DNA of 63,171 nucleotides, taken from the NCBI GenBank assembly GCA_963625295.1, contig CAVFTC010000001.1, positions 1 to 63,171 on the forward strand. Reading direction: 5' to 3'. Both the position numbers and the translations under genes were made by a program. The notes beneath the pieces are model-generated. The model had not been told where the DNA came from and searched no databases. It saw nothing but the letters and a program-made list of their open reading frames with translations. The DNA comes from Bacteroides faecis. Its GTDB lineage: Bacteria > Bacillota > Clostridia > Oscillospirales > Acutalibacteraceae. Shown here in pieces: positions 7,923-48,125 of this stretch; positions within the stretch are counted from its first letter, which is position 1, and every line of letters begins with the position of its first letter.

Positions 7923-7931
7923 CAAATAAAT

Positions 7932-7977
7932 CAATACCGCACATTTTGAACAAATCAATTTGTGCGGTATTGCCTTA
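7932..7977. repeat. MITE-end-derived hairpin (CAATACCGCACA / TGTGCGGTATTG) between convergent genes
   Basis: 12-bp perfect inverted repeat carrying the family terminus ...GTGCGGTATTGCCTTA. Confidence 0.8.
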
Positions 7978-7981
7978 TAAC

Positions 7982-8686: not shown

Positions 8687-8801
8687 AACTCTCTTCCTTT
8701 CGGTGGATTGTACTCCAATGCTAACAAATTCCAACAAAAAAGTCAAGAGTTTTTTAAAATTTTACTGAAAAATATCTCATTTTTCGCTGTATTGGCCTGA
8801 A

Positions 8802-16563: not shown

Positions 16564-16622
16564 ACTTACAAGATAGCAGGTCAGTACTGTTACCGAGTAT
16601 TCTATGAAAGGAGTTTGACATT

Positions 16623-16769
16623 ATGAATTTCGATTTCAGCGCAATTCTTGATAAGATCGACATTGATGCAATCATGAACAAGATTGTAGATCTCATCGTT
16701 CAGATCAACATTTCAGATGTACTCAACAAGATTATTGATCTGGTTATGAAGTTTGTTAACCCGGCATGA
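16623..16769 (+). CDS. Unannotated 48-aa acidic amphipathic small protein
   Basis: ATG preceded by AAAGGAG. It has its own promoter and a downstream hairpin plus T-run. Sequence: MNFDFSAILDKIDIDAIMNKIVDLIVQINISDVLNKIIDLVMKFVNPA. Below the 60-aa cutoff of the ORF track. Confidence 0.55.
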   Translation: MNFDFSAILDKIDIDAIMNKIVDLIVQINISDVLNKIIDLVMKFVNPA

Positions 16770-16886
16770 TCATTCTGTTCGAACTACAATTTTCTGAAAT
16801 AACAAACAGCAGTGGCGGCGAAAGCTGTCACTGTTGTTTTTTGAGTCAAAACGGCAACGGCATTTGCATAATTTGCCCAAAAACGC

Positions 16887-16915
16887 TTGACTTTGGTAAA
16901 TATTTGTAGTATACT
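16887..16915 (+). promoter_or_regulatory. Sigma-70-type promoter upstream of the mgtC pair
   Basis: TTGACT, 17 nt, TATACT. Followed by an 8-bp hairpin (CGGACGTG...CACGTCCG) in the leader. Confidence 0.55.
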
Positions 16916-19886: not shown

Positions 19887-21197
19887 TTATCTCCATGACA
19901 TATAGACGGTCTTGCCGTTCTCGGCAACCGCATATTTTGCGCTCTTGGTCGATGACTCATATTCGGAAAGAGAAAGACCTGTAAACTTAATGCTTCTGGA
20001 TCTCTTCGGTGAGTTATGGTCAATCGTGGTTGTGTTTTCAAGTCCGCCGATAAATGCATTTGCCTGCTCTGCGGTCTGGAAATTGATAGTATATTCCGCC
20101 TTGAGCTTTGCGGTTTCATCGGGGTTGATAACATAGCTTCCTGCGCTGAGAGTTCCCGGAGTGAAGCCGGTGAGCCACCATGTTGTTGTCGGCGATCTCT
20201 GGAAAAGAAGATTGTACTTATTCTGATCGCTCGTATCCTGTCTGTAAACCTTAACGCTCATGTTGAGCTTCTCGGCATCTGTTACGCAGTCATAATATGT
20301 GCTGCTTGTTTTGCCGATGTCACGGTTATAAAGACCAAGCTCCGCACCAATAAGAACCAAGCCGTACTGGCCCTTCCAGTACTGCATCATCCATTCCTTG
20401 TTGTTGTAGTTAAACTTAACACGAATTGTATCGTATGAAATTGCACCTGCGCCGGAAACATTATCGTAAGTCTCCTCGAAGCCGAAATTTCTCTGCCATG
20501 CGTCCTCTGCCGTGTAGAATACCTGATCCGTCATGCTGTATTTGAAGCCGAAAAGACCCGTATCCTTGCCGTCGGGACTGACGACAGTCCAGCTGTCCGT
20601 TTCCTCGTCATACTTGAACTTAACGGATTCCGAGAAACGCTTGAGGCTGGCATTGAGATCCGTAACAAACTTTTTCGCATCAAACTTGGTTGTGTTCTTG
20701 TTGCTGCTGTTGCCGCTGTTACCGCTGTTGCCGCCGCTGTTTGAATTGCTTCCGCTGTTTGAGCCGCCGCTGTTAGATCCACCGCCGCTGTTACCGCCGC
20801 TGCTTGAACCTCCATTGCTTGAACCGCCGCTCGAACCGCCACTGATGGAACCGCCGCTGCTTGAGCCGCCGCTAACATAACCGGAATTCATATCAAGCGT
20901 TTCAATCGTGTTGCCGTTGTTGTCAACAACATCAATCTGATTTGCAGTCTGATCATATTTCCATGTCTGGCCGCAATCGTTGCAGACATATGTGCCGTCA
21001 CCGTTATCCTTGATATTGGTTGACTGACAAACAGGGCAGCAAAGCTGATTTCCCGTATCGTCAACAACCGGCGTTACCGACGAATTGTTTTTCTTGGTTT
21101 GCCCGATAAAATTACATCCGGGCAATATAGTAAGAATCGCAAGCGTAAGAACACAAACGATTGCGATCACCCTCAACCCTCTTTCTTTACCTTTCAT
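19887..21197 (-). CDS. Membrane-anchored zinc-ribbon / Gly-Ser-linker / DUF4474-like protein
   Basis: N-terminal TM, CPVC...CNDC ribbon, about 60 aa of G/S/N low complexity, and a C-terminal domain with the WQRNFGF motif that I associate with DUF4474. Confidence 0.6.
   Translation of the reverse strand: MKGKERGLRVIAIVCVLTLAILTILPGCNFIGQTKKNNSSVTPVVDDTGNQLCCPVCQSTNIKDNGDGTYVCNDCGQTWKYDQTANQIDVVDNNGNTIETLDMNSGYVSGGSSSGGSISGGSSGGSSNGGSSSGGNSGGGSNSGGSNSGSNSNSGGNSGNSGNSSNKNTTKFDAKKFVTDLNASLKRFSESVKFKYDEETDSWTVVSPDGKDTGLFGFKYSMTDQVFYTAEDAWQRNFGFEETYDNVSGAGAISYDTIRVKFNYNNKEWMMQYWKGQYGLVLIGAELGLYNRDIGKTSSTYYDCVTDAEKLNMSVKVYRQDTSDQNKYNLLFQRSPTTTWWLTGFTPGTLSAGSYVINPDETAKLKAEYTINFQTAEQANAFIGGLENTTTIDHNSPKRSRSIKFTGLSLSEYESSTKSAKYAVAENGKTVYMSWR
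20700..20880. repeat. Coding low-complexity nucleotide repeat (GCCGCC/GCTGTT-type) encoding the Gly/Ser/Asn linker
   Basis: Iterated CCGCCGCTG / TTGCCGCTG units. They create long spurious ORFs on both strands (20531-20880). Confidence 0.7.
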
Positions 21198-29961: not shown

Positions 29962-30046
29962 GCGGATATGGCGGAATTGGCAGACGCGTTGGATTTAGGA
30001 TCCAATATCTTCTGATGTGCAGGTTCAAGTCCTGTTATCCGCACCA
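29962..30046 (+). tRNA. tRNA-Leu (anticodon UAG), type II with long variable arm and encoded CCA
   Basis: Acceptor GCGGATA/TATCCGC, anticodon arm TTGGA-TTTAGGA-TCCAA, T-loop TTCAAGT, discriminator A, then CCA. Confidence 0.9.
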
Positions 30047-34720: not shown

Positions 34721-34765
34721 AAAATGGCGGAAATCACCGGTTGATTTCCGCCATTTTCTGTTTTT
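34721..34765. terminator. Bidirectional terminator
   Basis: 14-bp stem AATGGCGGAAATCA...TGATTTCCGCCATT with a T-rich tail, between convergent genes. Confidence 0.8.
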
Positions 34766-34766
34766 A

Positions 34767-35849
34767 TCAGTCAAGCTTTACCTTGTATGTCCAGCCCATG
34801 TCGTCCTCAACATGACCTGTCTGCATACCGTAGAGCGTATCGTAAAGCTTCTGAGCGATCGGACCTACATTGCCGTCGGCAACCTTGTAATCCTCGCCCA
34901 TGTAATAAAGTGTGCCGATCGGAGAGATAACTGCGGCAGTACCGCTGGCAAATACCTCCTTGAGAGTGCCTGCCTTGGAGGCTGCGCATACATCGTCGAT
35001 TGAAAGGCGTCTCTCCGATACCTTTACTCCCCACTTCTTGAGAAGCTCGATGACGGACTTTCTTGTAATACCGGGAAGAATCGTACCCATAAGCGGAGCA
35101 GTGATGACCTCGTCGCCGATTACGAAGAAGGCGTTTGAAGTGCCGATCTCCTCAACATACTTATGCTCAACAGCGTCAAGCCAAAGAACATCCTTGCAGT
35201 CATGCTCCATAGCCTTTGCCGAAGCCTTCATGCCACCTGCATAGTTGCCGCCGCACTTTGCAAAGCCTGTACCGCCGACAGCCGCACGGATGAATTCATC
35301 CTCAACATAAATCCTTGTCGTGTGAAGTCCGCCGTCGTTTGCGGCATAGTAAGAACCGACGGGGCAAAGAATGATGATAAAGCGATAATGCTTTGCCGGA
35401 AGAACGCTGAACGAAACCTCGTCGCCGAAGATAAACGGTCTGATATAAAGAGCGGTTGCCGGCTCGGTGGGTATCCAATCCTTATCAACGGTAATAAGCT
35501 GGTTGATGGCGTCAAAGAAAATATCCTTTTCCATATGCGGAATACACATACGGTCATTGGTTCTGTTCATACGCTCAAAGTTCTCCTCGGGTCTGAAAAG
35601 CTGAACATCGCCCGACGGAGTTTTATATGCCTTCATGCCCTCGAACATCATCTGGGCATAGTGGAGCACGCATGAAGCGGGTTCAATGGCGATCGGCTCA
35701 TGCGGAACAATTCTTCCGTCATGCCAGCCCTGTCCCTCATCGTAGTCGATCATAAACATATGATCCGTGAAATATTTACCGAAGCCGAGCTTCTTCTGAT
35801 CCGGCTTCTCCTTCGGATGTGTTGTTCTTGTTACTGGAAATGTATACAT
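34767..35849 (-). CDS. ilvE: Branched-chain amino acid aminotransferase
   Basis: About 360 aa from the ATG at 35849 (AAAGGAG RBS). Type IV aminotransferase motifs: FGKYFTDHMF, EGMKAY, GGTG.AK.GGNYA. Confidence 0.9.
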   Translation of the reverse strand: MYTFPVTRTTHPKEKPDQKKLGFGKYFTDHMFMIDYDEGQGWHDGRIVPHEPIAIEPASCVLHYAQMMFEGMKAYKTPSGDVQLFRPEENFERMNRTNDRMCIPHMEKDIFFDAINQLITVDKDWIPTEPATALYIRPFIFGDEVSFSVLPAKHYRFIIILCPVGSYYAANDGGLHTTRIYVEDEFIRAAVGGTGFAKCGGNYAGGMKASAKAMEHDCKDVLWLDAVEHKYVEEIGTSNAFFVIGDEVITAPLMGTILPGITRKSVIELLKKWGVKVSERRLSIDDVCAASKAGTLKEVFASGTAAVISPIGTLYYMGEDYKVADGNVGPIAQKLYDTLYGMQTGHVEDDMGWTYKVKLD

Positions 35850-35881
35850 TTCTGTCGCTCCTTTCAAAGCATTCATTTTGT

Positions 35882-35917
35882 CAATGCCGCACATCTCAAT
35901 TGTGCGGATTTGCCTTA
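35882..35917. repeat. Solo MITE terminus (contains the internal CCGCACA/TGTGCGG hairpin)
   Basis: The reverse complement reads TAAGGCAAATCCGCACAATTGAGATGTGCGGCATTG. Its terminal TAA is the stop codon of the C-N hydrolase gene. Confidence 0.75.
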
Positions 35918-36721
35918 TAATTCATAGAGATCGGGTTTTCTGTCGTTGAAAACATTGATCGAGCTTCTTATATCCTTTATTATTCCGAAATCGCAGTCAG
36001 CTGTGATGACCTCCTGCGCCTCGCCTGCCGCAGCGAGCACCTCGCCCCACGGGTCGATTATCTGCGAATGACCGCCGAAAACTGCGTCCGGTGTTTTTCC
36101 GCAGGAGTTGCAGCAGACAACAAACATCTGATTTTCAATCGCTCTTGCTCTTGTGAGTGTAACGATGTGTTCCTTTCTCGCAAGAGGCCACTGCGACACC
36201 ATAAACAGCATGTCAATGCCCCTTAGGGCAAGGCTTCTGACAAGCTCGCAGAAGCGGATATCGTAGCAGATTACGACGCCGCACTTATGTCCGTCAAGCT
36301 CGAAGGTCACAAGCTTTTCGCCGAAGCTAAAATATTTGTGCTCGTCCATCGGGGTGAAAAGGTGCGTCTTGTCATATTCGGCAACGACATCGCCCTTACG
36401 GTTGAAAACAAACGCCGTGTTGTAAATCCCGCCGTTCTTTTCGTTGGCGATACTGCCGGCAACGATGTTTACATTAAGCTCCCTTGCCAACGCCGAAAAG
36501 GTCTTTTTCAGCCTCTCGCCGTCTTTGTCACAATAGCTCGAAAGATTTTCCTTGGGATAATATCCCGTCGTCCATGTTTCGGGAAGAACGATAACATCGG
36601 ATTTTTCTTTCGCTGCCGTCTCCCTTATCAGTCTGACAGCCTCGTTGTAGTTATATTCAACATCGCCGAGCTTCATATCAAGCTGAATGCAGGAAGCCTT
36701 CATTGTATTATTCATAATCAT
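35915..36721 (-). CDS. Carbon-nitrogen hydrolase (nitrilase/omega-amidase superfamily)
   Basis: Catalytic E-K-C contexts: VLPE, the Lys in YDKTHLF and the Cys in GVVICYDIRF. Alternative starts are 36739, 36715 or 36703. Confidence 0.8.
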   Translation of the reverse strand: MIMNNTMKASCIQLDMKLGDVEYNYNEAVRLIRETAAKEKSDVIVLPETWTTGYYPKENLSSYCDKDGERLKKTFSALARELNVNIVAGSIANEKNGGIYNTAFVFNRKGDVVAEYDKTHLFTPMDEHKYFSFGEKLVTFELDGHKCGVVICYDIRFCELVRSLALRGIDMLFMVSQWPLARKEHIVTLTRARAIENQMFVVCCNSCGKTPDAVFGGHSQIIDPWGEVLAAAGEAQEVITADCDFGIIKDIRSSINVFNDRKPDLYEL

Positions 36722-37247
36722 AACCTGCCTTGACAGCACCCTTGTTCACATCAAGGAGATCAAGGTGACGGGCGGAAACAACCTTCTTGAGTGCGTCATC
36801 GGTATAATCAATCGAAAACTGCGGCACTTCCTTGAGAATCTTGCCCGTGATTATCATATTCGCAAGGGTCGGCGTTCCGTTATCGTTCGCCATTTTTGTT
36901 GCAGGAATATAATATACATCAACATCTGTTCTGTCAATCTTTTTGTCGATCATTGTTGAATCAACAAAAATCTTTCCGCCGCTGACAACATCGTTTTCGT
37001 ATTTTTCAAGTGACGGAAGATTCATTGCAACAAGCACATCCGGCTTGTCAACGATTGGAGAGCCGATCGGCTCGTCGCTGATAATCACGGAGCAGTTGGC
37101 AGTGCCGCCTCTCATTTCCGGTCCGTAGGACGGAAGCCAGCTGACCTGCTTGCCCTCGATAAGTCCCTTATATGCAAGGAATTTGCCTGCAAACAGAATT
37201 CCCTGTCCGCCGAAGCCTGCGAATAACATTCTGCAAGTGCTGCTCAT
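36708..37247 (-). CDS. 2-oxoacid:ferredoxin oxidoreductase, gamma subunit
   Basis: 179 aa; the GFGGQGI motif typical of POR/KOR/VOR gamma subunits. Confidence 0.85.
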
Positions 37248-37999
37248 TTTTCTTCCTCCTTTGCATAGATATCCTTGTAAACGCCGAGAGGATAGTAAGG
37301 AATCATGTTCTCCTCTGCCCAGTCAAGAGCCTTCTGCGGAGTCATTCCCCAGTTTGTAGGGCAGGTTGAAATAACCTCAACGAGAGAAAAGCCCTTGCCC
37401 TCAAGCTGATTCTTGAATGCCTTTTTGATAGCCTTTTTAGCGTTCTTGACATTTTTTACATTGTTGACAGCAACTCTCTCAAGATATGCCGCACCGTCAA
37501 CATTTGAAAGAAGCTCGCAAACCTTAACGGGATAGCCGACGGTGTTGACATCTCTGCCGTAGGGTGAGGTCTGGGTGACCTGACCGGGAAGCGTTGTCGG
37601 AGCCATCTGACCGCCCGTCATACCGTAAATAGCATTGTTAACGAAAATAACGGTGATATTCTCCCGTCTTGCAGCGGCATGAACCGTCTCGGCAGTACCG
37701 ATAGCGGCAAGGTCGCCGTCGCCCTGATATGTGAATACAACCTTTGACGGGTCGCTTCTCTTAACGCCTGTTGCAACGGCAGGAGCACGGCCGTGAGCCG
37801 CCTGAACAAAATCACATGTGAAATAGTTATATGCCATAACAGAGCAGCCGACCGATGCGACGCCGATCGTATCACCCTCGATTCCAAGCTCATCAATTAC
37901 CTCTGCAACCAGACGGTGAATAATACCGTGAGTACAGCCGGGACAATAGTGAAGCGTTGCGTCCGTCAATGATTTCGGTTTTTCAAATACAACTGACAT
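37244..37999 (-). CDS. 2-oxoacid:ferredoxin oxidoreductase, beta (TPP-binding) subunit
   Basis: CPGCTHG, GDGD....G and [10 protein letters not shown] motifs. The start at 37999 overlaps the alpha stop (TAATG). Confidence 0.85.
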
Positions 38000-39057
38000 T
38001 ATTCTGCACCTCCGTTTGACATGATAGCCGAAAGAACATCCTCCGGCGTCGGGATCATTCCGCCGACACGGTTGCAAAGCTCAACCGGTCTTTTGCAATC
38101 GATCGCAAGCTTCACATCGTCGATCATCTGACCCATGTTCATTTCAACAGTTATAAATCTCTTGCACTTCTCGGCAGCAGCCTTGAGCGGCTTTGTCGGG
38201 AACGGCCAGAGCGTGATCGGTCTTATCATGCCGACCTTGACGCCTCTCTTGCGTGCCTCATTGACTGCGTTCTTTGCCACACGGGCGGTGATACCGAACG
38301 CAACAACGCAAACCTCGGCGTCCTCCATGAGATATTCCTCGTACATCGTTTCGTTTTCTTCGATCGTCTTATATTTCTGATATCTCTCGAAATTCTTTAT
38401 TTCAAGCTCCTCGGGCTTGAGGTAAAGCGAATTGACTATGTTATGCTCTCTCTCACACTTTGTGCCGGTGAGTGCCCACGGCTTTTCAACCGGAGTTACC
38501 TCGGCAACATCGAGGGAAACCGGCTCCATCATCTGACCCATTGTGCCGTCGGCAAGGATCATTGCAACCATTCTGTATTTATCCGCAAGCTCAAAGCCCT
38601 TGACGGTGAGGCTTGCCATTTCCTGAACGGAAGCCGGTGCAAGTACGATATTGTGGTAATCGCCGTGTCCGCCACCCTTTGTTGACTGCCAGTAATCCGA
38701 CTGTGAGGGCTGAATTCCGCCGAGTCCGGGGCCGCCACGCTGAACATTGACCACGAGTGCGGGAAGGTCGCAGCCGGCGAGATATGAAATACCCTCGCTT
38801 TTAAGCGAAACTCCGGGGCTGGAGGAGGAGGTCATGACTCTCTTGCCTGTTGACGAAACGCCGATAACCATGTTGATTGCAGCGATCTCGCTCTCCGCCT
38901 GCAGGAATGTTCCGCCGATCTTCGGCATACGCTTTGACATGTAAGCCGCAACCTCTGTCTGCGGAGTTATGGGATAACCGAAGTAATGTCGGCAGCCTGC
39001 TCTGATAGCAGCCTCGGCAATTGCTTCGTTGCCTTTCATAAGTACTTTATCTGACAT
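37999..39057 (-). CDS. vorB: 2-oxoacid:ferredoxin oxidoreductase, alpha subunit (VorB-like)
   Basis: [36 protein letters not shown]-terminus typical of VorB/KorA-type alpha subunits. The longer track ORF runs into the ferredoxin gene. Confidence 0.8.
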
Positions 39058-39062
39058 TTTCT

Positions 39063-39269
39063 TCACCTCTCTACCGTAATAACACAATCGGGGCACATTG
39101 TAGCGCAGAAGGCGCATCCGATACACTTTTCCTGTTCCGTCACAACTGCGGGATGATGTCCCTTGTTGTTCAAAGTCGTCTCTGACAAATGAACTATTCC
39201 CTTGGGACAAGCGTTCACGCAAAGTCCGCAGCCCTTGCAAAGGTCTGTTTTGAATGTTACTTTAGCCAT
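39063..39269 (-). CDS. 2x[4Fe-4S] ferredoxin (delta subunit)
   Basis: Two CxxCxxCxxxCP motifs in 68 aa. Confidence 0.9.
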   Translation of the reverse strand: MAKVTFKTDLCKGCGLCVNACPKGIVHLSETTLNNKGHHPAVVTEQEKCIGCAFCATMCPDCVITVER

Positions 39270-39281
39270 TTGACATTCCTC

Positions 39282-39938
39282 CTAATTTATTTTCGCCTGT
39301 AGGGTAAGCGGAAGCATATTGCTCACTCGCCCGTACAGCTCTTTATAAAGCGTCTTTTTTACGGTAGTCATCGCAACGGGAAGCCCCGTAAGCTTTGAAA
39401 CCTCATCGGCATATTTGAGCGAATCAAGAACATCCTGAGCGGTCGTCTCCTCGCCGAGATTTGAGTTGTTTATTATAGCCGTAAATTTCATTGAACCGGC
39501 TTTTTCGATTTCATTCATGACCTCAAGGGTGCTGTAAGCGTCCCTTGTCAGCGGTCTGTACATGTTTATTACAAGAAACATCTCATAGTCGTTTTCCCGT
39601 ACTATGCTTTCGGAATAGCGGCCGAGAGCGTATGCGCCTCTGTCGTCGCCGCCGATATCCATAACAGCGTATTCCGTGCGGTCGTCAATGACAGAATATA
39701 TATCCTGCGGCAGCGAGGGAAGATCAACATTTGAGCTTGCAAAGTCCGAGCAGATAAGTCTTATCCCGGCGGCTTTAAGCTCCTTTTCGCTGTCCTTGGT
39801 TCTGAAATACGGGTTGACGATATCCAAATCCGCAACAGCCACCTCAAGACCCTGCTGTCTGAGCTTAAAAGCGTAATTGACCGCTATATTCGTTTTTCCG
39901 CTGCCGTAATGACCGGCAAAAAGCGTTATGCGCTTCAT
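39282..39938 (-). CDS. MinD/ParA/CooC-like P-loop ATPase
   Basis: Deviant Walker A GHYGSGKTN; 218 aa; first gene of the oxidoreductase operon. Confidence 0.7.
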   Translation of the reverse strand: MKRITLFAGHYGSGKTNIAVNYAFKLRQQGLEVAVADLDIVNPYFRTKDSEKELKAAGIRLICSDFASSNVDLPSLPQDIYSVIDDRTEYAVMDIGGDDRGAYALGRYSESIVRENDYEMFLVINMYRPLTRDAYSTLEVMNEIEKAGSMKFTAIINNSNLGEETTAQDVLDSLKYADEVSKLTGLPVAMTTVKKTLYKELYGRVSNMLPLTLQAKIN

Positions 39939-39953
39939 TATTTCACCCCAATA

Positions 39954-39988
39954 TAGATTTTAGACTTTAGATTGTAGATATTAGATAT
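39954..39988. repeat. Five tandem heptads TAGATNN
   Basis: TAGATTT TAGACTT TAGATTG TAGATAT TAGATAT, 16 nt upstream of the P-loop gene start and overlapping its putative -10. Confidence 0.8.
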
Positions 39989-40000
39989 TCCGATAATCAA
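39971..40000 (-). promoter_or_regulatory. Candidate promoter of the P-loop/VOR operon
   Basis: On the minus strand: TTGATT, 18 nt, TACAAT. Confidence 0.4.
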
Positions 40001-40020
40001 ATCTTTAATATCTAATCGGT

Positions 40021-40330
40021 GTGCCAAACCTTAGGATAAATTGTTCAGCGTGCGTCGAGTTCAAGGCGACAGGCTGACGCAACTATGTGTATTGCTAAGT
40101 CTGTCAACGCAGAAATCGGCGTACCAAACCTTAGGATAAATTGTTCAAGGTGCGTCGAGTTCAAGGCAACAGGCTAACGCAATACTATGTGTATTGCTAA
40201 GTCTGTCAACGCAGAAATCGGCGTGCCAAACCTTAGGATAAATTGTTCAGGGTGCGTCGAGTTCAAGGCGACAGGCTGACGCAATACTATGTGTATTGCT
40301 AAGTCTGTCAACGCAGAAATCGGCGTGCCA
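40021..40330. repeat. Three head-to-tail ~101-bp direct repeats plus a 6-nt partial fourth unit
   Basis: Units at 40021-40120, 40121-40222 and 40223-40324. Unit 1 vs unit 3 differ by 1 substitution and a 2-nt indel; unit 2 vs unit 3 differ by 4 substitutions. Each unit holds a ~17-bp imperfect hairpin. Confidence 0.95.
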
Positions 40331-40338
40331 TGGACAAT

Positions 40339-42609
40339 TTACAGCTGATTACGGATGATTTTGCCGCTTATAGTCTTTGGAAGCTCGTCCTTGAACACAA
40401 CGATTCTCGGGTACTTGTAAGGAGCGGTGTGCTTCTTAACATAGTTCTGAATTTCTTTTTTAAGCTCCTCGGTCGGCTCTGTGCCCTTGGTAAGGACAAT
40501 GGAAGCCTTGACGACCTGTCCTCTTACCTCGTCGGGAGCAGCGGAAACGCCGCACTCAAGAACATAAGGAAGCTCCATGATAACATTTTCGATCTCGAAC
40601 GGTCCGATACGGTAGCCGGACGATTTGATAACATCGTCGATACGGCCGACATACCAGAAATATCCGTCCTCATCACGCCATGCGATATCGCCCGTGTGAT
40701 AAACGCCGTCGTGCCAAACCTCGTCTGTACGATCCTGATTTCTGTAGTAGCCGAGGAATATACCGCACGGTACTTTCTCGGAAGTGTTGACGCAGATTTC
40801 ACCGGTTTCACCGATATCCGCTTCCGTTCCGTCGGGACGAAGAATCTTGATGTCGTAAAGCGGCGTCGGCTTGCCCATTGAGCCGGGCTTCGGAGTCATT
40901 CCGGTGAGCGTTGCTATTCCAAGAGTCATCTCCGTTTGACCGAAGCCCTCCATAAGCTCAAGTCCGGTAGCATTATAGAACTGGCGGAATACCTCCGGGT
41001 TAAGTGCCTCACCGGCTGTTGTTGCGTGACGGATAGAGGAAAGATCGTACTTTGCGAGATCCTCCTTTATCATCATTCTGTACATCGTCGGAGGTGCGCA
41101 GAATGTTGTGATGTTATATTGCTTGAACATCGGAAGAATATCCGACGCATCGAAGCGGTCGAAGTTATATACAAATACTGCGCCCTCGCAGAGCCACTGT
41201 CCGTAGAGCTTGCCCCAAAGAGCCTTGCCCCAGCCGGTGTCGGAGATTGTAAGGTGAAGTCCGTCCTTGCTTACGCAGTGCCAATATTTAGCGGTGATAT
41301 AGTGTCCGAGCGGATATTTGTAGGAATGGGTTGCGATTTTCGGATAGCCCGTTGTGCCGGAGGTGAAGAACATAAGCATCGGATCGTTTCCGCACGGTGC
41401 GTCCTCTTCCCTTCTGTATCTTCTGGAGAACAGGCTGTATTCGCTGTCGAAGCTGTGCCAGCCCTCACGCTCGCCGCCGACAATGATTTTGTTGACGAGA
41501 GTATGCGTCTTTGCGTCGGCGATGTCAACCTGATGAGCGGTGTCGCCGTCGGCTGTGCAAAGAATTGTCGTTACTCCTGCCGCCTCAAATCTGTACTCAA
41601 AGTCATGGTCAACAAGAAGATTCGTTGCCGGAATTGCGATTGCGCCGATCTTATGAAGCGCAAGGATTGCAAACCAGAACTGATAATGACGCTTGAGAAC
41701 AAGCATTACCCTGTCGCCCTTCTTTATGCCGAGCGACTTGAAGTAGTTGGCCGCCTGTGCCGAGTGCTCCTTGACATCCTTAAATGTGAAGATGCGTTCC
41801 GTCTTATCGCGGTCAACATGAACGAGTGCACGCTTGTCAGGGGATTTTTTTGCAATTTTATCAACGATATCAAAAGCGAAGTTGAATTCATCCTCATGAT
41901 TAAAATCAATGGAAACAAGATTTCCGTTTTCGTCCTCTGTTGCGTCAATAAACTTCTCGCAAACATAGCTGCCCTTTGCCTTTACGCCCTTGACAGCTCT
42001 TTCGTGAACGATATTCGTTACCGTATCATCACTTGCCATGACCATCGCAAGGAAGAGACAATCCCTGCCGTCGATGGCAACCATTCCGTGAGGCGTTGAG
42101 GAGTTATAATAAATGCTGTCGCCCTCGTTAAGAATCTCCTCATGATTTCCGACTCTTACTCTCAGTGAACCGCTGATAACGATATCGAACTCCTGACCAC
42201 CGTGAGTTACGGTGCTTATCGGTTTATTTTCAAGCTCCGCGTCATACTCGTATCTAACCCAGTACGGCTCGGAAAGCTTTTTTCTGAAATTCGGTGCAAG
42301 GTTTTTGATTTCGATTCCGTTCTCGCTGGCGGTGATCTGACCCTTGCCCAGTCTTGTAACGGTATAGGATGAAAGCACGGCGCTGTGACCTTCAAGAAGA
42401 TCCGTAATGCCAATGTCAAAAGCAAGTGCACACTTGTGAATAAAAGTGAAAGGAAGGTCAACCGTTCCGCTCTCATAGAGCCTGTAGGTTTCAACAGAGA
42501 CTTCAGACTTCTCCGCCATTTCCTCAACGGTAAAGCCGCATATGTCTCTCATTTCCTGGATACGCTCAGCAACCTCATAAAGCTTGTTTGATTCGTTTTG
42601 ATTTGACAT
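40339..42609 (-). CDS. XRE-HTH + cupin domain fused to an AMP-forming medium-chain acyl-CoA synthetase
   Basis: N-terminal ~190 aa: HTH (ICGFTVEEMAEKSEVSVETYRLYESG) and cupin (GQEFDIVISGSL...YYNSSTPHGM). Remainder: ACSM/MacS-like ligase (MFFTSGTTGYPK, YGQTE, YHTGD, SGKIIR). Confidence 0.85.
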   Translation of the reverse strand: MSNQNESNKLYEVAERIQEMRDICGFTVEEMAEKSEVSVETYRLYESGTVDLPFTFIHKCALAFDIGITDLLEGHSAVLSSYTVTRLGKGQITASENGIEIKNLAPNFRKKLSEPYWVRYEYDAELENKPISTVTHGGQEFDIVISGSLRVRVGNHEEILNEGDSIYYNSSTPHGMVAIDGRDCLFLAMVMASDDTVTNIVHERAVKGVKAKGSYVCEKFIDATEDENGNLVSIDFNHEDEFNFAFDIVDKIAKKSPDKRALVHVDRDKTERIFTFKDVKEHSAQAANYFKSLGIKKGDRVMLVLKRHYQFWFAILALHKIGAIAIPATNLLVDHDFEYRFEAAGVTTILCTADGDTAHQVDIADAKTHTLVNKIIVGGEREGWHSFDSEYSLFSRRYRREEDAPCGNDPMLMFFTSGTTGYPKIATHSYKYPLGHYITAKYWHCVSKDGLHLTISDTGWGKALWGKLYGQWLCEGAVFVYNFDRFDASDILPMFKQYNITTFCAPPTMYRMMIKEDLAKYDLSSIRHATTAGEALNPEVFRQFYNATGLELMEGFGQTEMTLGIATLTGMTPKPGSMGKPTPLYDIKILRPDGTEADIGETGEICVNTSEKVPCGIFLGYYRNQDRTDEVWHDGVYHTGDIAWRDEDGYFWYVGRIDDVIKSSGYRIGPFEIENVIMELPYVLECGVSAAPDEVRGQVVKASIVLTKGTEPTEELKKEIQNYVKKHTAPYKYPRIVVFKDELPKTISGKIIRNQL

Positions 42610-42651
42610 GATTTTTACCTCCGTAACATACCGGGAACCGATTTCGGATAA

Positions 42652-42947
42652 AACAAAAAATCCGTCCCAAAGTCATTAGAACTTTGAGACGGATTTGAAT
42701 ATCCGCGGTACCACTCAAATTGCGATCTGCTATTGCTTCTCGCCTCTCTGCAGGATCTGACAATCCCTCAACACTGACGTAGTTGTCACGGGAGAAACTA
42801 CTGTAGTTTTCATCTCTCCGGCTCGGAAGTGATGGGCTTTACATTTACCTCGCTATCGGCTCGCACCAAACGCCGACTCTCTGAAAGGACATAAACGCAA
42901 CCGTCTTCGTCACAGCCTTTGTTTCAACAGGTTATTTGTACCTGTTG
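42652..42947 (-). promoter_or_regulatory. T-box riboswitch leader, putative Ile (AUC) specifier
   Basis: Minus strand shows a K-turn (TGACGAAG / CTTCCGAGCC), AGAGAG bulge, distal loop GGTGCGA, T-box AATTTGAGTGGTACCGCGG (42703-42721) and the terminator TCCGTCTCAAAG...CTTTGGGACGGA + TTTTTT. Confidence 0.85.
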
Positions 42948-42953
42948 CGGTAC

Positions 42954-42982
42954 ATTATAAGATACTTTTCACAATTTTTCAA
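42954..42982 (-). promoter_or_regulatory. Promoter of the T-box(Ile) leader
   Basis: On the minus strand: TTGAAA, 17 nt, TATAAT. Confidence 0.7.
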
Positions 42983-42991
42983 GGGATATTT

Positions 42992-43009
42992 TGTAATATA
43001 AGTATTACA
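42992..43009. promoter_or_regulatory. Palindromic operator candidate TGTAATA-N4-TATTACA
   Basis: Perfect 7-bp inverted repeat 9 nt upstream of the -35. An identical motif with identical spacing lies at 47278-47295. Confidence 0.6.
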
Positions 43010-43019
43010 TTGTGTAATG

Positions 43020-45518
43020 TTACGCAGTTACAACAGAATTTGCCTTTTGCAGTCCGTATTTCTTGATTGCGTCCTCACGCATCTTGTATTTAAGAATCTT
43101 ACCGGCAACATTCATCGGGAACTCGGACACAAAGTCAATGTACTTCGGCACTTTATGCTTCGCCATATGAGAAAGAACATAGTCCTTCATCTCCTGCTCG
43201 GTCATGGTTTCGCCCTCCTTGAGGATAATGCAAGCCATTATCTCCTCGCCGAGTCCCTCGTCGGGAACGCCGATTACCTGAACATCCTTGACCTTCGGGT
43301 GGGTGTAAATGAACTCCTCAATCTCCTTGGGATAGATATTCTCGCCGCCACGGATAATCATATCCTTAAGTCTGCCTGTGATTCTGTAGTTGCCCTCCGG
43401 AGTGCGGCACGCAAGGTCGCCGGTATGAAGCCAGCCGTCCTTGTCGATTGCGCTTGCCGTAGCCTTCGGCATTTTATAGTAACCCTTCATGATGTTGTAT
43501 CCACGGGCAACGAACTCACCGGTCACATTGTCCGGGCATTCAAGACCCGTATCGGGGTCAACGATTTTACATTCGATTTTCGGAAGCGGATGACCGACAG
43601 TAGCCACACGATCCTCCAGCGGGTCGTCAGTGCTGCTCATCGTACAGCCCGGAGATGATTCCGTCTGACCGTAAACGATTGTGATTTCGGTCATATGCAT
43701 TTTTTCGACAACCTCACGCATCTTTGAGATCGGACACGGCGAGCCTGCCATGATACCCGTTCTCATGTATGAAAAATCGGTCTTTTCAAAGTCGGGGTGC
43801 TGTAGCATTGCGATAAACATCGTCGGAACGCCGTGGAAAGCCGTTATACGCTCGGAATTTATACACGCAAGCGATGATTTCGGCGAGAAATACGGTAATG
43901 GGAGAGCCGTTCCGCCGTGGGTCATGATGGCAGTCATGGCAAGAACCATGCCGAAGCAATGGAACATCGGAACATGGATCATCATTCTGTCCGCCGTTGA
44001 AAGATCCATTCTGTCGCCGATACACTTACCGTTGTTTACGACATTGTAGTGGGTAAGCATAACGCCCTTCGGGAAGCCTGTTGTACCGGAGGTGTACTGC
44101 ATATTGCATACATCGTCCCTCCTGACAAGAGAAGCCATTCTGTAGACCTCCTCGACAGGAACCTCGCTCGACTTGTCAACCGCCTGCTCCCATGTCATAC
44201 AGCCCTGCTGCTCATAGCCGACCGTAATAATATTTCTCAAAAACGGCAATCTCTTTGCGTGGAGCTTTTCGCCGCTCTTGGTGCTTTCCAGCTCAGGGCA
44301 AAGCTCAGCCATGATCTCGTCATAGTGTGAGTCTCTGTAGCCCTTTATCATAATCAGCGTATGAGTATCCGACTGTCTGAGCAGATATTCCGCCTCGTGA
44401 ATTTTATATGCCGTGTTCATTGTAACAAGAACAGCGCCGATTTTGGTGGTCGCCCAAAACGAAATATACCACTGCGGAACATTGGTTGCCCAAACGGCAA
44501 CATGAGAGCCGGCTTTTACGCCCATTGCAATAAGCGCTCTCGCAAAGGTATCAACATCGTCACGGAACTGCGCATATGTTCTCGTATAGTCAAGCGTTGT
44601 ATATTTGAATGCAAGCTGATCGGGAAACTCCTCAACCATTCTGTCAAGAACCTGCGGGAATGTCTCCTCGATAAGCTCCTCTTTTTTCCAGATGAATTTG
44701 CCTGTATGGGTCTTGTTGTAGTAGTATTTCTTCTTGCTTGTCTCGTCCGCAACAGTCTCCATAAAGCTCTCATAATGAGTCAAAATGATTTCAAGATCGT
44801 CTATCGACTCGAACCACTCGGGATTCCATTCAACGCAAACAAAGCCGTTGTAATTTATCGAGCCGAGAGCATTCATCATGTCCTTGATAGGCATTGCGCC
44901 CTCGCCGATGAGAGTGTGCTCGCCTGCCTTCACGGCGTCGGTCAGATGGACAAGCTTGACATATGCGCCAAGGTTGGTAATGGTCTTTTCCGAATCCTCG
45001 CCGCCGACGAAGTATGTTTCATACATATTCCAATCTGCGCCGATAAAGTCGCTTGCAAAATAGTTCATCAAATCGCAGAGCCTTGTCGTGTCGGCAAAAA
45101 TGCCCGTCGTTTCGACAAGGACGATAACATTGTGCTTTTCGCCCTCTGCGATAGCCTTGCCGATGAACTCAAGCGCCTTTTCGTAAGCGTCTTCGCCACC
45201 CTCAACATAGAGCTTGACATAGGGAATGTTTATGTTGCTTGCAACGGTGATAGCCGAGTTCATTTTTTCAATATTTTCGTCGGAATTATCTGCGGCGTTG
45301 CAGTTTGAATTTATGCAAACTATGCTCTTTTTCGAGTTGATGAGCTTTCTTTTGGTTGCCGAAGCCATGTCAGGATTAAACGGTGAGGTTCTGCCTGAAA
45401 ACATTGCGTCACGAAAATCGTGGATCTCAACTCCGCCGTATTTCAGCTCATCCGCCATATTGAGAAAGTCATCAAAGCTTTTATTCTTATGAAATCTTGT
45501 AGAAAAAGCTAATTTCAC
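43020..45518 (-). CDS. Xylose-isomerase-like TIM-barrel domain fused to an AMP-dependent acyl-CoA ligase
   Basis: N-terminal ~270 aa resemble AP-endonuclease-2 / sugar-phosphate-isomerase TIM barrels. The C-terminal ~560 aa are a FadD-type ligase (MQYTSGTTGFPKGVMLTH, YGQTE, LHTGD, AGKILK). GTG start with a GGAGGG RBS, 2 nt after the upstream stop. Confidence 0.8.
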   Translation of the reverse strand: MKLAFSTRFHKNKSFDDFLNMADELKYGGVEIHDFRDAMFSGRTSPFNPDMASATKRKLINSKKSIVCINSNCNAADNSDENIEKMNSAITVASNINIPYVKLYVEGGEDAYEKALEFIGKAIAEGEKHNVIVLVETTGIFADTTRLCDLMNYFASDFIGADWNMYETYFVGGEDSEKTITNLGAYVKLVHLTDAVKAGEHTLIGEGAMPIKDMMNALGSINYNGFVCVEWNPEWFESIDDLEIILTHYESFMETVADETSKKKYYYNKTHTGKFIWKKEELIEETFPQVLDRMVEEFPDQLAFKYTTLDYTRTYAQFRDDVDTFARALIAMGVKAGSHVAVWATNVPQWYISFWATTKIGAVLVTMNTAYKIHEAEYLLRQSDTHTLIMIKGYRDSHYDEIMAELCPELESTKSGEKLHAKRLPFLRNIITVGYEQQGCMTWEQAVDKSSEVPVEEVYRMASLVRRDDVCNMQYTSGTTGFPKGVMLTHYNVVNNGKCIGDRMDLSTADRMMIHVPMFHCFGMVLAMTAIMTHGGTALPLPYFSPKSSLACINSERITAFHGVPTMFIAMLQHPDFEKTDFSYMRTGIMAGSPCPISKMREVVEKMHMTEITIVYGQTESSPGCTMSSTDDPLEDRVATVGHPLPKIECKIVDPDTGLECPDNVTGEFVARGYNIMKGYYKMPKATASAIDKDGWLHTGDLACRTPEGNYRITGRLKDMIIRGGENIYPKEIEEFIYTHPKVKDVQVIGVPDEGLGEEIMACIILKEGETMTEQEMKDYVLSHMAKHKVPKYIDFVSEFPMNVAGKILKYKMREDAIKKYGLQKANSVVTA

Positions 45519-45520
45519 AA

Positions 45521-46936
45521 TTAACCCTCCTCGTATGCTATCTTGTTCAGTGCGCTGACATATGCACGGATGCTTGCGCCGATAATATCTGTCGAAATGC
45601 CTGTTCCGGAATAGAGCTTTCCGGTCGAGCTTCTGAGCTTAACGAGCGCATGACCCATGGCCTCACGACCCTCGGTAACGGCTTGAATCTGGAAATCGTC
45701 CAGCTCGTAGTGATGTCCGATAATCTGCTCGATTGCAAGAAACGCCGCATCAATCGGACCGTCTCCGACGCTCACACCGCTGACCACCGTGCCATCCTTG
45801 ACAAGCTTGATGTTAGCGGTTGCGGTAATAATGTTACCGCTGTTGATAACATAGCTTTCAATCGAATAGCTTGAGGGAACCTGCAATGCGGAGGAGGCTA
45901 TAATTACTTCAAGCTCCTTTGTGCCGACAAAGTCCTTCTTAACGGCAACACGCTTGAACGCCTCATAAACATTTGAATTATCCTCGGGAGAAAGGTCGTA
46001 GCCGATTTTTTTAACCGCCTTTATAACGGTTGCTATCGTGTCGTTTTTATCAAGAGTGAGGCTCTCGCCGTCCTCGTTTACACCTGTTTCAAACGGCGTA
46101 TTCTCACTCTTGGAGGTGTTGAGCATTCTTTTTATTTGACCCGTAACACGCTGAAGCTCTGTCGTCCTTATCTTGCTTGAGGCCTTTATAGAATCACCTC
46201 TGAGGGTGAATATCTTCATGATTTTTTCAACCGTCGGGAAGTTGAAATTGTCTGCCGTAACCTTGATCTGCGACGCTCCGGCTTCGATTGCGGCGAATGC
46301 GGAGGCGGAGGCCATGTTCATTGAGTCAACGACCTCAACGCCGACCGTAGCATTCTTGGCGGACGGAACATTCTCAAAAATATCCGAGATAAAGCCGCCG
46401 AATTCGGACGGGAACATCGTACCCTCGGAGTCGCAAACAGTGACCCTCGTTGCGCCTGCCTTTATCGCTTCTTCTATCGCCTGATACAGGAACGGTCTTT
46501 CGGCTCTCACTGCGTCCTCAGCCGAGAATTCAATGCTGTCGGTGTACTTTTTGCACTCGGTGATAAGCTCTGTTACCATGCTCATCACCACCGGCGGCTT
46601 TTTGCCGCACTTGAACTCCATCTGAACCGCAGACATCGGGAGAGAAACCTTAAGAGAAAACTTCTTTGCACCCTTTGCGCAGTTATAAGCCGTTTCAACG
46701 CCCGCCGCATCATAACCAACATCAACGGCGATTTCCGAATGCTTCATAAGCGAAGCGATCGTTTTTATAAGAAGAACATCGGTTGATGTGTTCTTTATTT
46801 TCGGCATCTCGATGATATCGCAGTGCAGCTTGTCCATCTGCTTTGCGATCTCGATCTTCTCCTTAAAGCTTAAGGAATGGCTGGCTGACGACTCGCTTTC
46901 TCTGAGCGTCACATCGGATAAAATTACTTTTCTCAT
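45521..46936 (-). CDS. 2-isopropylmalate-synthase homolog (HMGL-like TIM barrel + LeuA regulatory domain) with degenerate catalytic motifs
   Basis: 471 aa from the ATG at 46936 (AAAGGAG RBS). Colinear with LeuA, but DTTLRDGEQ is SDVTLRESES, HTHxD is VEVVD and GIGERAGN is ADNFNFPT. The C-terminal LeuA-dimer-like domain is intact. Confidence 0.8.
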   Translation of the reverse strand: MRKVILSDVTLRESESSASHSLSFKEKIEIAKQMDKLHCDIIEMPKIKNTSTDVLLIKTIASLMKHSEIAVDVGYDAAGVETAYNCAKGAKKFSLKVSLPMSAVQMEFKCGKKPPVVMSMVTELITECKKYTDSIEFSAEDAVRAERPFLYQAIEEAIKAGATRVTVCDSEGTMFPSEFGGFISDIFENVPSAKNATVGVEVVDSMNMASASAFAAIEAGASQIKVTADNFNFPTVEKIMKIFTLRGDSIKASSKIRTTELQRVTGQIKRMLNTSKSENTPFETGVNEDGESLTLDKNDTIATVIKAVKKIGYDLSPEDNSNVYEAFKRVAVKKDFVGTKELEVIIASSALQVPSSYSIESYVINSGNIITATANIKLVKDGTVVSGVSVGDGPIDAAFLAIEQIIGHHYELDDFQIQAVTEGREAMGHALVKLRSSTGKLYSGTGISTDIIGASIRAYVSALNKIAYEEG

Positions 46937-46959
46937 AACGATTCTCCTTTTGAAGTTAT

Positions 46960-47233
46960 AAAAAAACAAAGTCCCGGAAGTATTCAAACTTCCGGGACGA
47001 TAAAACATGTTTACCGCGGTACCACCCGCATTGCCTAAACGGCCTCTTCGGATTCTGACAAATCCTAAGCTGTGATAACGGTGCTTGCCGTAGCTCCTTA
47101 TACAGTAAAGACGGTTGGGGAGCTCTGCTCGGATACGAGACAGCAATTAAATTTCCATATCGGCTCACACCTACCGCCGACTCTCTGAAATCAGAAATAA
47201 AACGCTTAATATCTTCAACGCATTTCAAATATT
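46960..47233 (-). promoter_or_regulatory. T-box riboswitch leader, putative Leu (CUC) specifier
   Basis: Minus strand shows a K-turn (GCGTTGAAGATA / TATCCGAGCA), AGAGAG bulge, distal loop GGTGTGA, T-box GCGGGTGGTACCGCGG (47014-47029) and the terminator GTCCCGGAAG...CTTCCGGGAC + TTTGTTTTTTT. Confidence 0.85.
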
Positions 47234-47239
47234 GCAGTT

Positions 47240-47268
47240 ATTATAGTAAACTTTTTTTAATTTGTAAA
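47240..47268 (-). promoter_or_regulatory. Promoter of the T-box(Leu) leader
   Basis: On the minus strand: TTTACA, 17 nt, TATAAT. Confidence 0.7.
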
Positions 47269-47277
47269 CAGACAAAA

Positions 47278-47295
47278 TGTAATATTTGTATTACA
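47278..47295. promoter_or_regulatory. Palindromic operator candidate TGTAATA-N4-TATTACA (second copy)
   Basis: Perfect 7-bp inverted repeat 9 nt upstream of the -35, with the same geometry as 42992-43009. Confidence 0.6.
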
Positions 47296-47303
47296 AAATG
47301 TAA

Positions 47304-48125
47304 TTACTTCAAAAGCTCCGCATTGAGCGTTTTTCCGTAAGCTGTTGCGGCATTGACAAGACCCTCATCGGGAATCGTCTGCATAATGGGCTTGCCGGTG
47401 CTGAGAATTCTGCAATAGATCTCCGCTGATTTCTCGATTGTATGCATAAGACCGAAGGCTGCGTCAAATGTGTTGCCCGATACAAAAAGTCCGTGGTGCG
47501 CCCATACGATGGCGTCGTATTTCTTTTGAAGCTCGCAGGTCTTGTGAGCTATCTCCGCTCCGCCGGGAATCATCCATTCAACAACGCCGACGCCGTTCGG
47601 GAAAATGATCGGGCACTCCGTCATGCTCTCCCAGAGAACTCTTGAGAAAGCCTCGGAGGTAAGCGGAAGAACAAATGTGAGAGCGATAATGTTAACGGGA
47701 TGGGCATGGTAGATAACTCTGCAAGCGCCGTCCGTTGCCGCAACACGAACGCTGTGGTTCATGAAATGGGTCGGGAACTCGCTTGTCGGGCCGCCGCCGT
47801 TAACAAGACCCCATACGATTCTGTAGCCGTCGCCTGCGTCGTTGATTTCAAGAATGCACATATTTGCCGCCGGATCTCTGATAACATTCTGGAAGAACTT
47901 ACCCGTACCCGTTACCATGAAATACTCATTTTTAAGGTTGTCCGCCTGAACGCCGAGATCAACCCACGGCCTGTCATATGTAAAGTAAGGCTTGCAAGCC
48001 TCTACCTCTTCGGCTGTCATACGGTAGGAAAGGTTTCCGCCGTTGCCCTCATGCCAGCCCTGCTCATAGCCGTCGTTGCAGGTAAGAGCAAACTTTTTGA
48101 TTACATCAAGATCCAAAATACTCAT
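47304..48125 (-). CDS. rhaD: Rhamnulose-1-phosphate aldolase (class II aldolase)
   Basis: 273 aa, colinear with E. coli RhaD: GW.E.NGGNL, VTG.GKFF.NV..DPAAN, PTSE.P.HF, HAHP.N.IALT, HGLF..G. Confidence 0.85.
   Translation of the reverse strand: MSILDLDVIKKFALTCNDGYEQGWHEGNGGNLSYRMTAEEVEACKPYFTYDRPWVDLGVQADNLKNEYFMVTGTGKFFQNVIRDPAANMCILEINDAGDGYRIVWGLVNGGGPTSEFPTHFMNHSVRVAATDGACRVIYHAHPVNIIALTFVLPLTSEAFSRVLWESMTECPIIFPNGVGVVEWMIPGGAEIAHKTCELQKKYDAIVWAHHGLFVSGNTFDAAFGLMHTIEKSAEIYCRILSTGKPIMQTIPDEGLVNAATAYGKTLNAELLK

Follow-up and report, generated by a model that had tools for sequence, protein, structure and literature searches.

In classical T-box systems, that is the ilv-leu operons, the aminoacyl-tRNA synthetases and the amino-acid transporters, the cargo of the RNA switch raises the matching amino acid. 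The specifier in Stem I reads the anticodon of the tRNA, the UGGN bulge reads its uncharged 3' end, and the leader folds into either an antiterminator or a terminator. Many fibre-degrading anaerobes of the rumen and the gut depend on branched short-chain fatty acids or take them up. As cited in PMC7356843, the carboxylation of isovalerate to leucine and of isobutyrate to valine is classical (Allison, 1966, 1971). Two ligases acting on such acids have been characterised: MacsMa of Methanosarcina acetivorans (3ETC) prefers 2-methylbutyrate (PMC10455477), while MbcS of Staphylococcus aureus, which also favours 2-methylbutyrate, activates this acid and isobutyrate and is poor on isovalerate (PMC10026030). 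In the present study we analysed 63,171 nt of contig CAVFTC010000001.1 (GCA_963625295.1), hereafter the window, which carries a gene cluster with Leu and Ile T-box leaders, two acyl-CoA ligase genes (LIG1 and LIG2) and genes for a ferredoxin, the 2-oxoacid oxidoreductase VOR and the branched-chain aminotransferase IlvE. The cluster is probably a salvage regulon that makes Leu, Ile and Val from external branched short-chain fatty acids. The three steps proposed for it (activation, ferredoxin-dependent carboxylation and transamination) are the same as those of the reductive carboxylation described by Allison in rumen anaerobes, though that work was physiological. It shares its RNA architecture with the classical T-box systems and differs from them in its cargo, here AMP-forming acyl-CoA ligases and a ferredoxin-dependent 2-oxoacid oxidoreductase, and in that three paralogous switches (Leu, Ile and Val) would divide one salvage pathway.

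All cluster genes lie on the minus strand, from the promoter of the Leu T-box to the terminator at 34757..34721, and the flanking genes are unrelated to them (a class II aldolase, an FGGY kinase and a metallophosphoesterase). A sequence-only reading of this DNA had listed the genes of the cluster, and Pfam and NCBIfam matches recovered every one of them, on the minus strand throughout. Two starts needed minor correction: the gene of the isopropylmalate synthase (IPMS)-like protein, formerly drawn as a 541-aa open reading frame entering the T-box, actually starts at ATG 46936, and the hydrolase gene starts at 36703. The start of VOR alpha was set by comparison with the related locus L001. On forward-strand numbering, the features are as follows.

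47240..47268, minus strand, promoter-like TTTACA-17-TATAAT of the Leu operon (11 of 12 matches)
46990..47227, minus strand, T-box leader with specifier CUC (Leu), RF00230, 94.9 bits
46971..46998, minus strand, intrinsic terminator of the Leu T-box, an 11-bp stem with a downstream T run
45521..46936, minus strand, IPMS-like pseudoenzyme (pIPMS), 471 aa, degenerate HMGL-like barrel and LeuA regulatory domain
43020..45518, minus strand, LIG1, 832 aa, xylose-isomerase-like TIM barrel (AP_endonuc_2) fused to an AMP-forming acyl-CoA ligase
42954..42982, minus strand, promoter-like TTGAAA-17-TATAAT of the Ile operon (11 of 12 matches)
42682..42922, minus strand, T-box leader with specifier AUC (Ile), RF00230, 103.2 bits
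42658..42696, minus strand, intrinsic terminator of the Ile T-box, formed by a stem-loop and a run of T
40339..42609, minus strand, LIG2, 756 aa, helix-turn-helix (HTH_3) and Cupin_2 domains fused to an AMP-forming acyl-CoA ligase
39282..39938, minus strand, CbiA/ParA-like P-loop protein, 218 aa, Walker A motif GHYGSGKT
39063..39269, minus strand, ferredoxin, 68 aa, two [4Fe-4S] clusters, resembling the 2-oxoacid oxidoreductase delta subunit (Pfam Fer4)
37999..39057, minus strand, VOR alpha subunit, 352 aa, NCBIfam type VorB (NF005507, 545 bits, cut-off 399)
37244..37999, minus strand, VOR beta subunit, thiamine pyrophosphate-binding, 251 aa (Pfam TPP_enzyme_C)
36708..37247, minus strand, VOR gamma subunit, 179 aa (Pfam POR)
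35915..36703, minus strand, CN hydrolase of the Nit2/omega-amidase type, 262 aa (Pfam, E = 3.8e-56)
34767..35894, minus strand, IlvE, branched-chain aminotransferase, class IV type II (NF009897, TIGR01123)
34721..34757, minus strand, hairpin terminator closing the operon

Our results revealed that the T-boxes are genuine and complete. Leu and Ile T-boxes had been claimed upstream of the ligase genes, and a check against Rfam RF00230 placed both leaders above its gathering score of 93, with both matches spanning all 219 model positions. In the RF00230 alignment both specifiers were followed by a purine and then by the 3' strand of the basal helix. The conserved T-box sequence GGUGGUACCGCG was found in both window leaders, and in both the terminator overlapped the 3' arm of the antiterminator. 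Furthermore, a covariance model of Stem I built from eight leaders displayed compensatory changes in 13 of its 20 pairs. At window positions 29962-30046 (plus strand), about 5 kb past the cluster on its ilvE side, lies a tRNA-Leu gene whose anticodon is UAG; CUC, the specifier of the Leu leader, would instead pair best with a tRNA-Leu of anticodon GAG.

Relatives were gathered by searching a species-representative collection (one genome per species) with aligned IPMS-like sequences; at least 412 stretches encoded IPMS-like relatives, and 80 loci were kept. The locus counts given below refer to 84 related loci of uncultured Oscillospirales, chiefly from gut and rumen samples. The closest carriers in the one-genome-per-species scan were Ruminococcus sp. 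CAG:563 and CAG:488, and remoter ones included Faecousia, other Oscillospiraceae and Ruminococcus genomes of ruminant metagenomic origin. A cultured carrier, Neobittarella massiliensis Marseille-P4047 (L046), was also among them, with the Leu T-box, pIPMS and LIG1. Full-length homologs of the TIM-ligase fusion LIG1 were frequent in uncultured Clostridia (Oscillospirales), with identity down to 69%, and the three neighbourhoods retrieved through them shared one gene set but arranged it differently. One of the three supplied the first Val case, a second HTH-cupin-ligase gene behind a GUA T-box. An exact-sequence look-up of LIG2 gave no match, and homologs at up to 96% identity were used in its place.

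Specifier and ligase were strictly paired among these loci. The Stem I model gave 140 T-boxes in 81 sources, and their specifier codons, read by alignment column, were CUC (55), AUC (47), CUG (21), GUC (11), GUA (4), CUA (1) and ACC (1). The pIPMS gene with its partner LIG1 stood downstream of a Leu T-box in 76 of 76 cases, the HTH-cupin ligase LIG2 downstream of an Ile T-box in 47 of 47, and a second LIG2 paralog downstream of a Val T-box in 15 of 15. All 139 Stem I matches associated with the cluster carried Leu, Ile or Val codons, while the remaining one, the ACC (Thr) match in L084, had no cluster gene downstream. The synonymous changes (CUC/CUG/CUA and GUC/GUA) preserved the amino acid, which confirms the reading of the codons. 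All leaders with CAAGC where the others have GAGC were Val leaders with GUC. Such a set of three tRNA-specific switches, one per ligase, is predicted by amino-acid supply.

The pairing also bears on two rival explanations. In the first, the ligases would salvage branched acids as acyl-CoA primers for lipids, with IlvE and VOR working oxidatively in place of Bkd. Induction of the ligases under amino-acid scarcity would make sense here too, and an aminotransferase of the IlvE type with a 2-oxoacid oxidoreductase is the standard oxidative route to branched acyl-CoAs. However, three tRNA-specific switches are not what a supply of lipid primers predicts, and the cluster contains no fatty-acid synthesis genes. 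In the second, the branched-chain amino acids would be fermented (oxidative Stickland metabolism), IlvE and VOR degrading them to acyl-CoA and the AMP-binding enzymes helping in acid release. Matching each specifier to its ligase has no role in such a scheme, and induction by uncharged tRNA is the opposite of what degradation needs. We consider the supply of lipid primers improbable and fermentation very improbable.

The ligases were linked to the VOR and ilvE genes far beyond this genome. Restriction of that linkage to the window would have told against the salvage reading; instead it was kept through at least three gene orders in dozens of species-level genomes. The first order is that of the window. 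In the second, found in Faecousia and other Oscillospiraceae, the genes are divergent: the Leu T-box, the IPMS-like gene and LIG1 occupy one strand, and the other strand carries IlvE, an optional hydrolase, VOR, the ferredoxin, the CbiA-like gene, a second LIG2 (LIG2b) with its Val T-box, and the first LIG2 (LIG2a) with its Ile T-box. In the third, found in rumen Ruminococcus, one Leu-T-box operon contains the IPMS-like gene, LIG1, IlvE, the CbiA-like gene, the ferredoxin, VOR and an HTH-cupin ligase. In the relatives, the CbiA-like gene began 12-19 bp past the ligase gene, which places VOR and IlvE inside the T-box operon. For most relatives, gating by the T-box is thus predicted to extend from the ligase to the CbiA-like, ferredoxin, VOR and IlvE genes. 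This arrangement speaks against lipid primers once more, for an enzyme pair that degraded the scarce amino acid from within the same operon would worsen starvation. VOR alpha was present in 46 of the 84 loci, and many of the remaining loci end at a contig edge.

The only outlier among the leaders was found in L074, where a T-box Stem I (L074:5250-5400) of ambiguous specifier register stands immediately ahead of the CbiA-like gene and a ligase gene is missing from its usual place between them; it may be the remnant of a deletion. In the Faecousia-type loci L047, L055, L063, L069, L073, L075, L081 and L083 (about positions 6700-9550), an Ile T-box with its ligase is followed by a Val T-box with its ligase and VOR. 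The Ile unit lies directly before the Val unit, and therefore a transcript from the Ile promoter must pass a second attenuator of another specificity. The Val T-box had a promoter of its own in all three Val leaders that were checked (L004, L055 and L063).

The substrate of LIG2 is suggested by both homology and leader. It had been claimed that the enzyme set fits the route at the ligase step, and this is supported: the Ile/Val ligase is nearest to MacsMa and MbcS, the characterised 2-methylbutyrate and isobutyrate ligases. MacsMa (3ETC) was the best PDB match of its ligase domain (646 bits, E = 3e-193, query residues 4-518 of 520), and MbcS the best NCBIfam model (432 bits). The domain aligns with MacsMa from end to end and keeps the pocket motif, including the equivalent of Trp259. 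LIG2 is unlike both enzymes in having about 230 extra N-terminal residues (an XRE-type HTH and a cupin), a T-box and VOR/IlvE neighbours. From this homology and from the Ile or Val T-box ahead of its gene, we propose that LIG2 is a 2-methylbutyrate-CoA ligase, possibly acting on isobutyrate as well. The poor activity of MbcS on isovalerate fits the placing of Ile and Val T-boxes on the LIG2 family and of a separate ligase family behind the Leu T-box. MbcS itself serves the supply of lipid primers (PMC10026030), a role that favours the corresponding rival.

The LIG2 paralogs offer a further hint on specificity. Ile-type and Val-type proteins formed two groups with 80-83% identity inside and 70% between. 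Position 461 was the sole ligase-domain column that separated them, with Gly in the Ile-type and Ala in the Val-type (motif TGW[G/A]KxxW). It lies four residues before the LIG2 equivalent of MacsMa Trp259, which is the second Trp of the motif (3ETC residue numbering was calibrated on Gly459-Tyr460-Lys461). The group that studied MacsMa reported Trp259 to be critical for binding of the acyl substrate. On a reasonable reading, Ala at 461 would make a smaller pocket for a smaller acid.

The next two steps would be covered by VOR and IlvE. The earlier proposal had matched these enzymes to the route, and both VOR alpha (Pfam domains POR_N and PFOR_II) and IlvE scored above their NCBIfam cut-offs, IlvE with 465.4 bits for NF009897 (cut-off 307) and 375.6 bits for TIGR01123 (cut-off 250). 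The VOR beta and gamma subunits were under their NCBIfam equivalog cut-offs. The CbiA-like gene preceded the ferredoxin and VOR in all 46 loci with VOR alpha. A PDB sequence search with its product gave no match and its family matches were weak; it could help VOR to mature or assemble. The CN hydrolase gene was accessory, being present in just 18 of the 46 loci with VOR. Its nearest named structures were 2W1V (Nit2, E = 5e-37) and 1F89 (E = 8e-31), of the Nit2/Nit3, omega-amidase type, and as a speculation, it might remove a by-product of transamination and so pull that reaction.

The nature of these enzymes also bears on the fermentation rival. In its favour, the same type of oxidoreductase drives the production of branched acids in proteolytic Clostridia according to the literature, and VOR is reversible. 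However, both LIG1 and LIG2 have the AMP-binding, AMP-forming domain architecture (Pfam and NCBIfam), and ligases of this class are activation enzymes that operate in the activation direction. Fermentation that conserves energy works with phosphotransacylase/kinase pairs or with ADP-forming synthetases; neither is present in the cluster.

The Leu operon encodes two unusual proteins. The first, pIPMS, has the three-part fold of LeuA (barrel, linker and regulatory domain) with HMGL-like (E = 4.4e-37) and LeuA_dimer (E = 1.1e-29) Pfam domains, and lies downstream of a Leu T-box, as do some leuA genes (PMC2494555). Its start at ATG 46936 is preceded by a good ribosome-binding site. Unlike LeuA, it has lost the metal ligands and the GERAGN motif, and its gene is coupled to a ligase gene. 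When compared with the real synthases 3EWB and 3RMJ, it had RESES for RDGEQ and E-V-V for H-x-H, and GERAGN was deleted. In the 84 family members the His-x-His positions were never His, being E/S/Q/A and S/A/V/K, and the position of the catalytic Asp was E, Q, T or K. The protein had previously been called a pseudoenzyme, and the loss of these catalytic residues throughout the family agrees with that name. Conservation was 85-91% in columns 391-471, the regulatory domain, and 52-67% in the barrel. It also stayed under every LeuA equivalog cut-off of NCBIfam (best 292.8 bits against 532). The AlphaFold model (pLDDT 83) matched full-length LeuA of M. tuberculosis, including the leucine-bound 3FIG, and its barrel matched that of 3EWB with a TM of 0.93. 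Databases name the family variously: NCBI has 'hypothetical protein' and 'alpha-isopropylmalate synthase regulatory domain-containing protein', and JGI has '2-isopropylmalate synthase'.

In 83 of 84 pairs the stop codon of pIPMS lay -4 to +6 nt from the start of LIG1 (in the window LIG1 starts 2 nt after it), implying coupled translation. We infer that pIPMS is a leucine-sensing partner of LIG1. LIG1 itself is proposed to be an isovalerate-CoA ligase from the Leu T-box and the operon context. Its TIM domain gave a Pfam match to AP_endonuc_2 (E = 1.6e-16) and a single weak match in a PDB sequence search; its AlphaFold model (pLDDT 92) aligned by Foldseek with UlaE (TM 0.81), and the nearest structures were sugar epimerases at 10-18% identity.

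These two proteins also invite a third rival, in which the Leu operon runs other chemistry: both the barrel of pIPMS and the TIM domain would be catalytically active and convert a leucine-related 2-oxoacid or CoA ester in a new way, and the substrate of LIG1 would not be isovalerate. Four residues of the pIPMS barrel, E136, D141, R144 and D169, were invariant, and the TIM domain of the window, modelled with a fold of the sugar epimerase/isomerase type, keeps a putative Glu-Asp-His-Glu metal set. LIG1 is also without a characterised close relative. However, the former His-x-His of pIPMS varies freely and its catalytic Asp position varies too. Among 75 members, the putative TIM metal ligands, assigned by analogy, showed partial conservation: D157 was kept in 75 and H191 in 73, E230 was Glu in 65 and Asp in 6, and the first putative ligand, E136, was Glu in 53, Ser in 2 and Lys in 20. 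Both the barrel-type domain of pIPMS and the TIM domain evolve much faster than the ligase domain, and in L057, L058 and L060 LIG1 shares one Leu-T-box operon with IlvE and VOR. We therefore hold other chemistry in the Leu operon to be unlikely.

The salvage reading implies the following course of events. By the established T-box mechanism, uncharged tRNA-Leu or tRNA-Ile would stabilise the antiterminator of the matching leader and allow read-through. The Leu operon would then yield LIG1, which would convert isovalerate into isovaleryl-CoA, and by translational coupling the catalytically dead pIPMS. The Ile operon would yield LIG2, activating 2-methylbutyrate and perhaps isobutyrate to their acyl-CoAs, and would also supply the CbiA-like ATPase, the ferredoxin, VOR and IlvE. 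With reduced ferredoxin, VOR would carboxylate the acyl-CoA reductively to the 2-oxoacid, which IlvE would transaminate to Leu, Ile or Val.

Several observations weigh against this reading. VOR is reversible, and its sequence does not give the direction of the reaction. In the window, VOR and IlvE stand behind one T-box only, an arrangement that does not account for their induction when another branched-chain amino acid is short, and about 400 bp with a repeat array lie between LIG2 and the VOR genes. Furthermore, the window has neither a Val T-box nor a Val-type ligase; the Val T-box and the third ligase occur in sister clades. LIG2 was under the MbcS equivalog cut-off (432 against 850). The PDB matches of LIG1 were generic FadD-type ligases and its best model, PRK12583, scored 691 bits against a cut-off of 832, so that its assignment to isovalerate draws on context alone.

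One more feature occupies the spacer that separates LIG2 from the CbiA-like gene.

40014..40330, minus strand, tandem array of 102-bp units, 3.1 copies, 94% matches (Tandem Repeats Finder)

The array had been described as three 101-bp repeats; the tandem arrangement stood at 3.1 copies, and the period proved to be 102 instead of 101. The unit was confined to this spacer and to the window's own clade. Its copy number differed between strains and species: about one in L001, L012 and L014, about two in L007, L011 and L027, about three in L006 and L008 as in the window, and about seven in L010 (L010:16607-17313). The arrays of L007, L008, L011 and L027 lay near 16600-16900. The promoter-like TTGACA-16-TAGTAT was found in two of the window's three units, and the units carried a hairpin with a 7-bp stem. 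It is possible that the array gives VOR and IlvE an expression independent of the Ile T-box, which would be useful when only leucine is short. Two other functions were tried for the unit and rejected. As a structured RNA, it folded no better than shuffled sequences (z = -1.54) and matched no Rfam family. As a sigma-54 promoter, TGGCACG-N4-TTTC at the start of each unit was a weak candidate in which the -12 GC is absent.

Two further elements lie upstream of the T-box promoters.

47290..47304, no strand assigned, perfect palindrome ATTACAAAATGTAAT, candidate operator just upstream of the -35 of the Leu promoter
43004..43018, no strand assigned, perfect palindrome ATTACATTGTGTAAT, candidate operator upstream of the Ile T-box promoter

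The pattern ATTACA-N3-TGTAAT had two matches in the whole window against 0.13 expected, both just upstream of the -35 box of a T-box promoter, and each palindrome was followed by another ATTACA half-site. It recurred at the same place in L003, L016, L029 and L031 and was not found in the Faecousia-type loci; if it is an operator, it is therefore clade-specific. The palindromes may be the operator of the HTH-cupin domain of LIG2. In BirA-type ligase/repressors, an adenylate-forming ligase is likewise fused to an N-terminal HTH, and to our knowledge there is no sequence relationship between these proteins and LIG2. The cupin domain of LIG2 retains His136, Glu140 and His174, and a PDB sequence search with the HTH-cupin region gave no matches.

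These features leave room for a second layer of end-product control, which we put forward tentatively and regard as somewhat doubtful. It would consist of the dead LeuA paralog as an allosteric leucine sensor on LIG1 and of LIG2 as a BirA-like repressor at the palindromes. Made in fixed proportion with LIG1, leucine-bound pIPMS would shut down the activation of isovalerate. The HTH-cupin part of LIG2 would be a DNA-binding and ligand-sensing module that binds ATTACA-N3-TGTAAT at both T-box promoters. If this dual control is true, the salvage pathway would be regulated at three levels: DNA, RNA and protein.

Elsewhere in the window, a 682-aa protein with a LytB/IspH domain and four S1 RNA-binding domains was encoded at 51980-54028 (minus strand); it was also present in L001, a 96%-identical strain. 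Overlapping short tandem repeats with periods of 9-42 nt at 20699-20873 fell within a minus-strand open reading frame of 436 aa (19887..21197) and point to a repetitive protein segment of low complexity. A 6S RNA (82 bits) at L004:20530-20725 (minus strand) was unrelated to the cluster.

With regard to earlier descriptions, the T-box surveys PMC2494555 and PMC3766115 make no mention of ferredoxin, CoA or ketoisovalerate. In the literature searched, no gene set or regulation was assigned to the reductive carboxylation route of branched acids, and no T-box-controlled ligase/VOR module was described, although an earlier description is not wholly excluded. The sequence-only reading had likewise known of no such module. 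Acyl-CoA ligases with a ferredoxin oxidoreductase would extend the cargo of T-boxes by a new type.

For a route that has been known since the 1960s from labelling only, the cluster provides candidate genes at each step. Its T-box specifiers serve as intrinsic labels from which the acid of each ligase can be predicted. The dead IPMS paralog and the two odd ligase fusions are new candidates for enzyme-derived sensor domains. Moreover, if the salvage reading holds, the cluster would be a marker for cross-feeding on the products of protein fermentation, with its marker gene occurring in at least 412 species-representative stretches.

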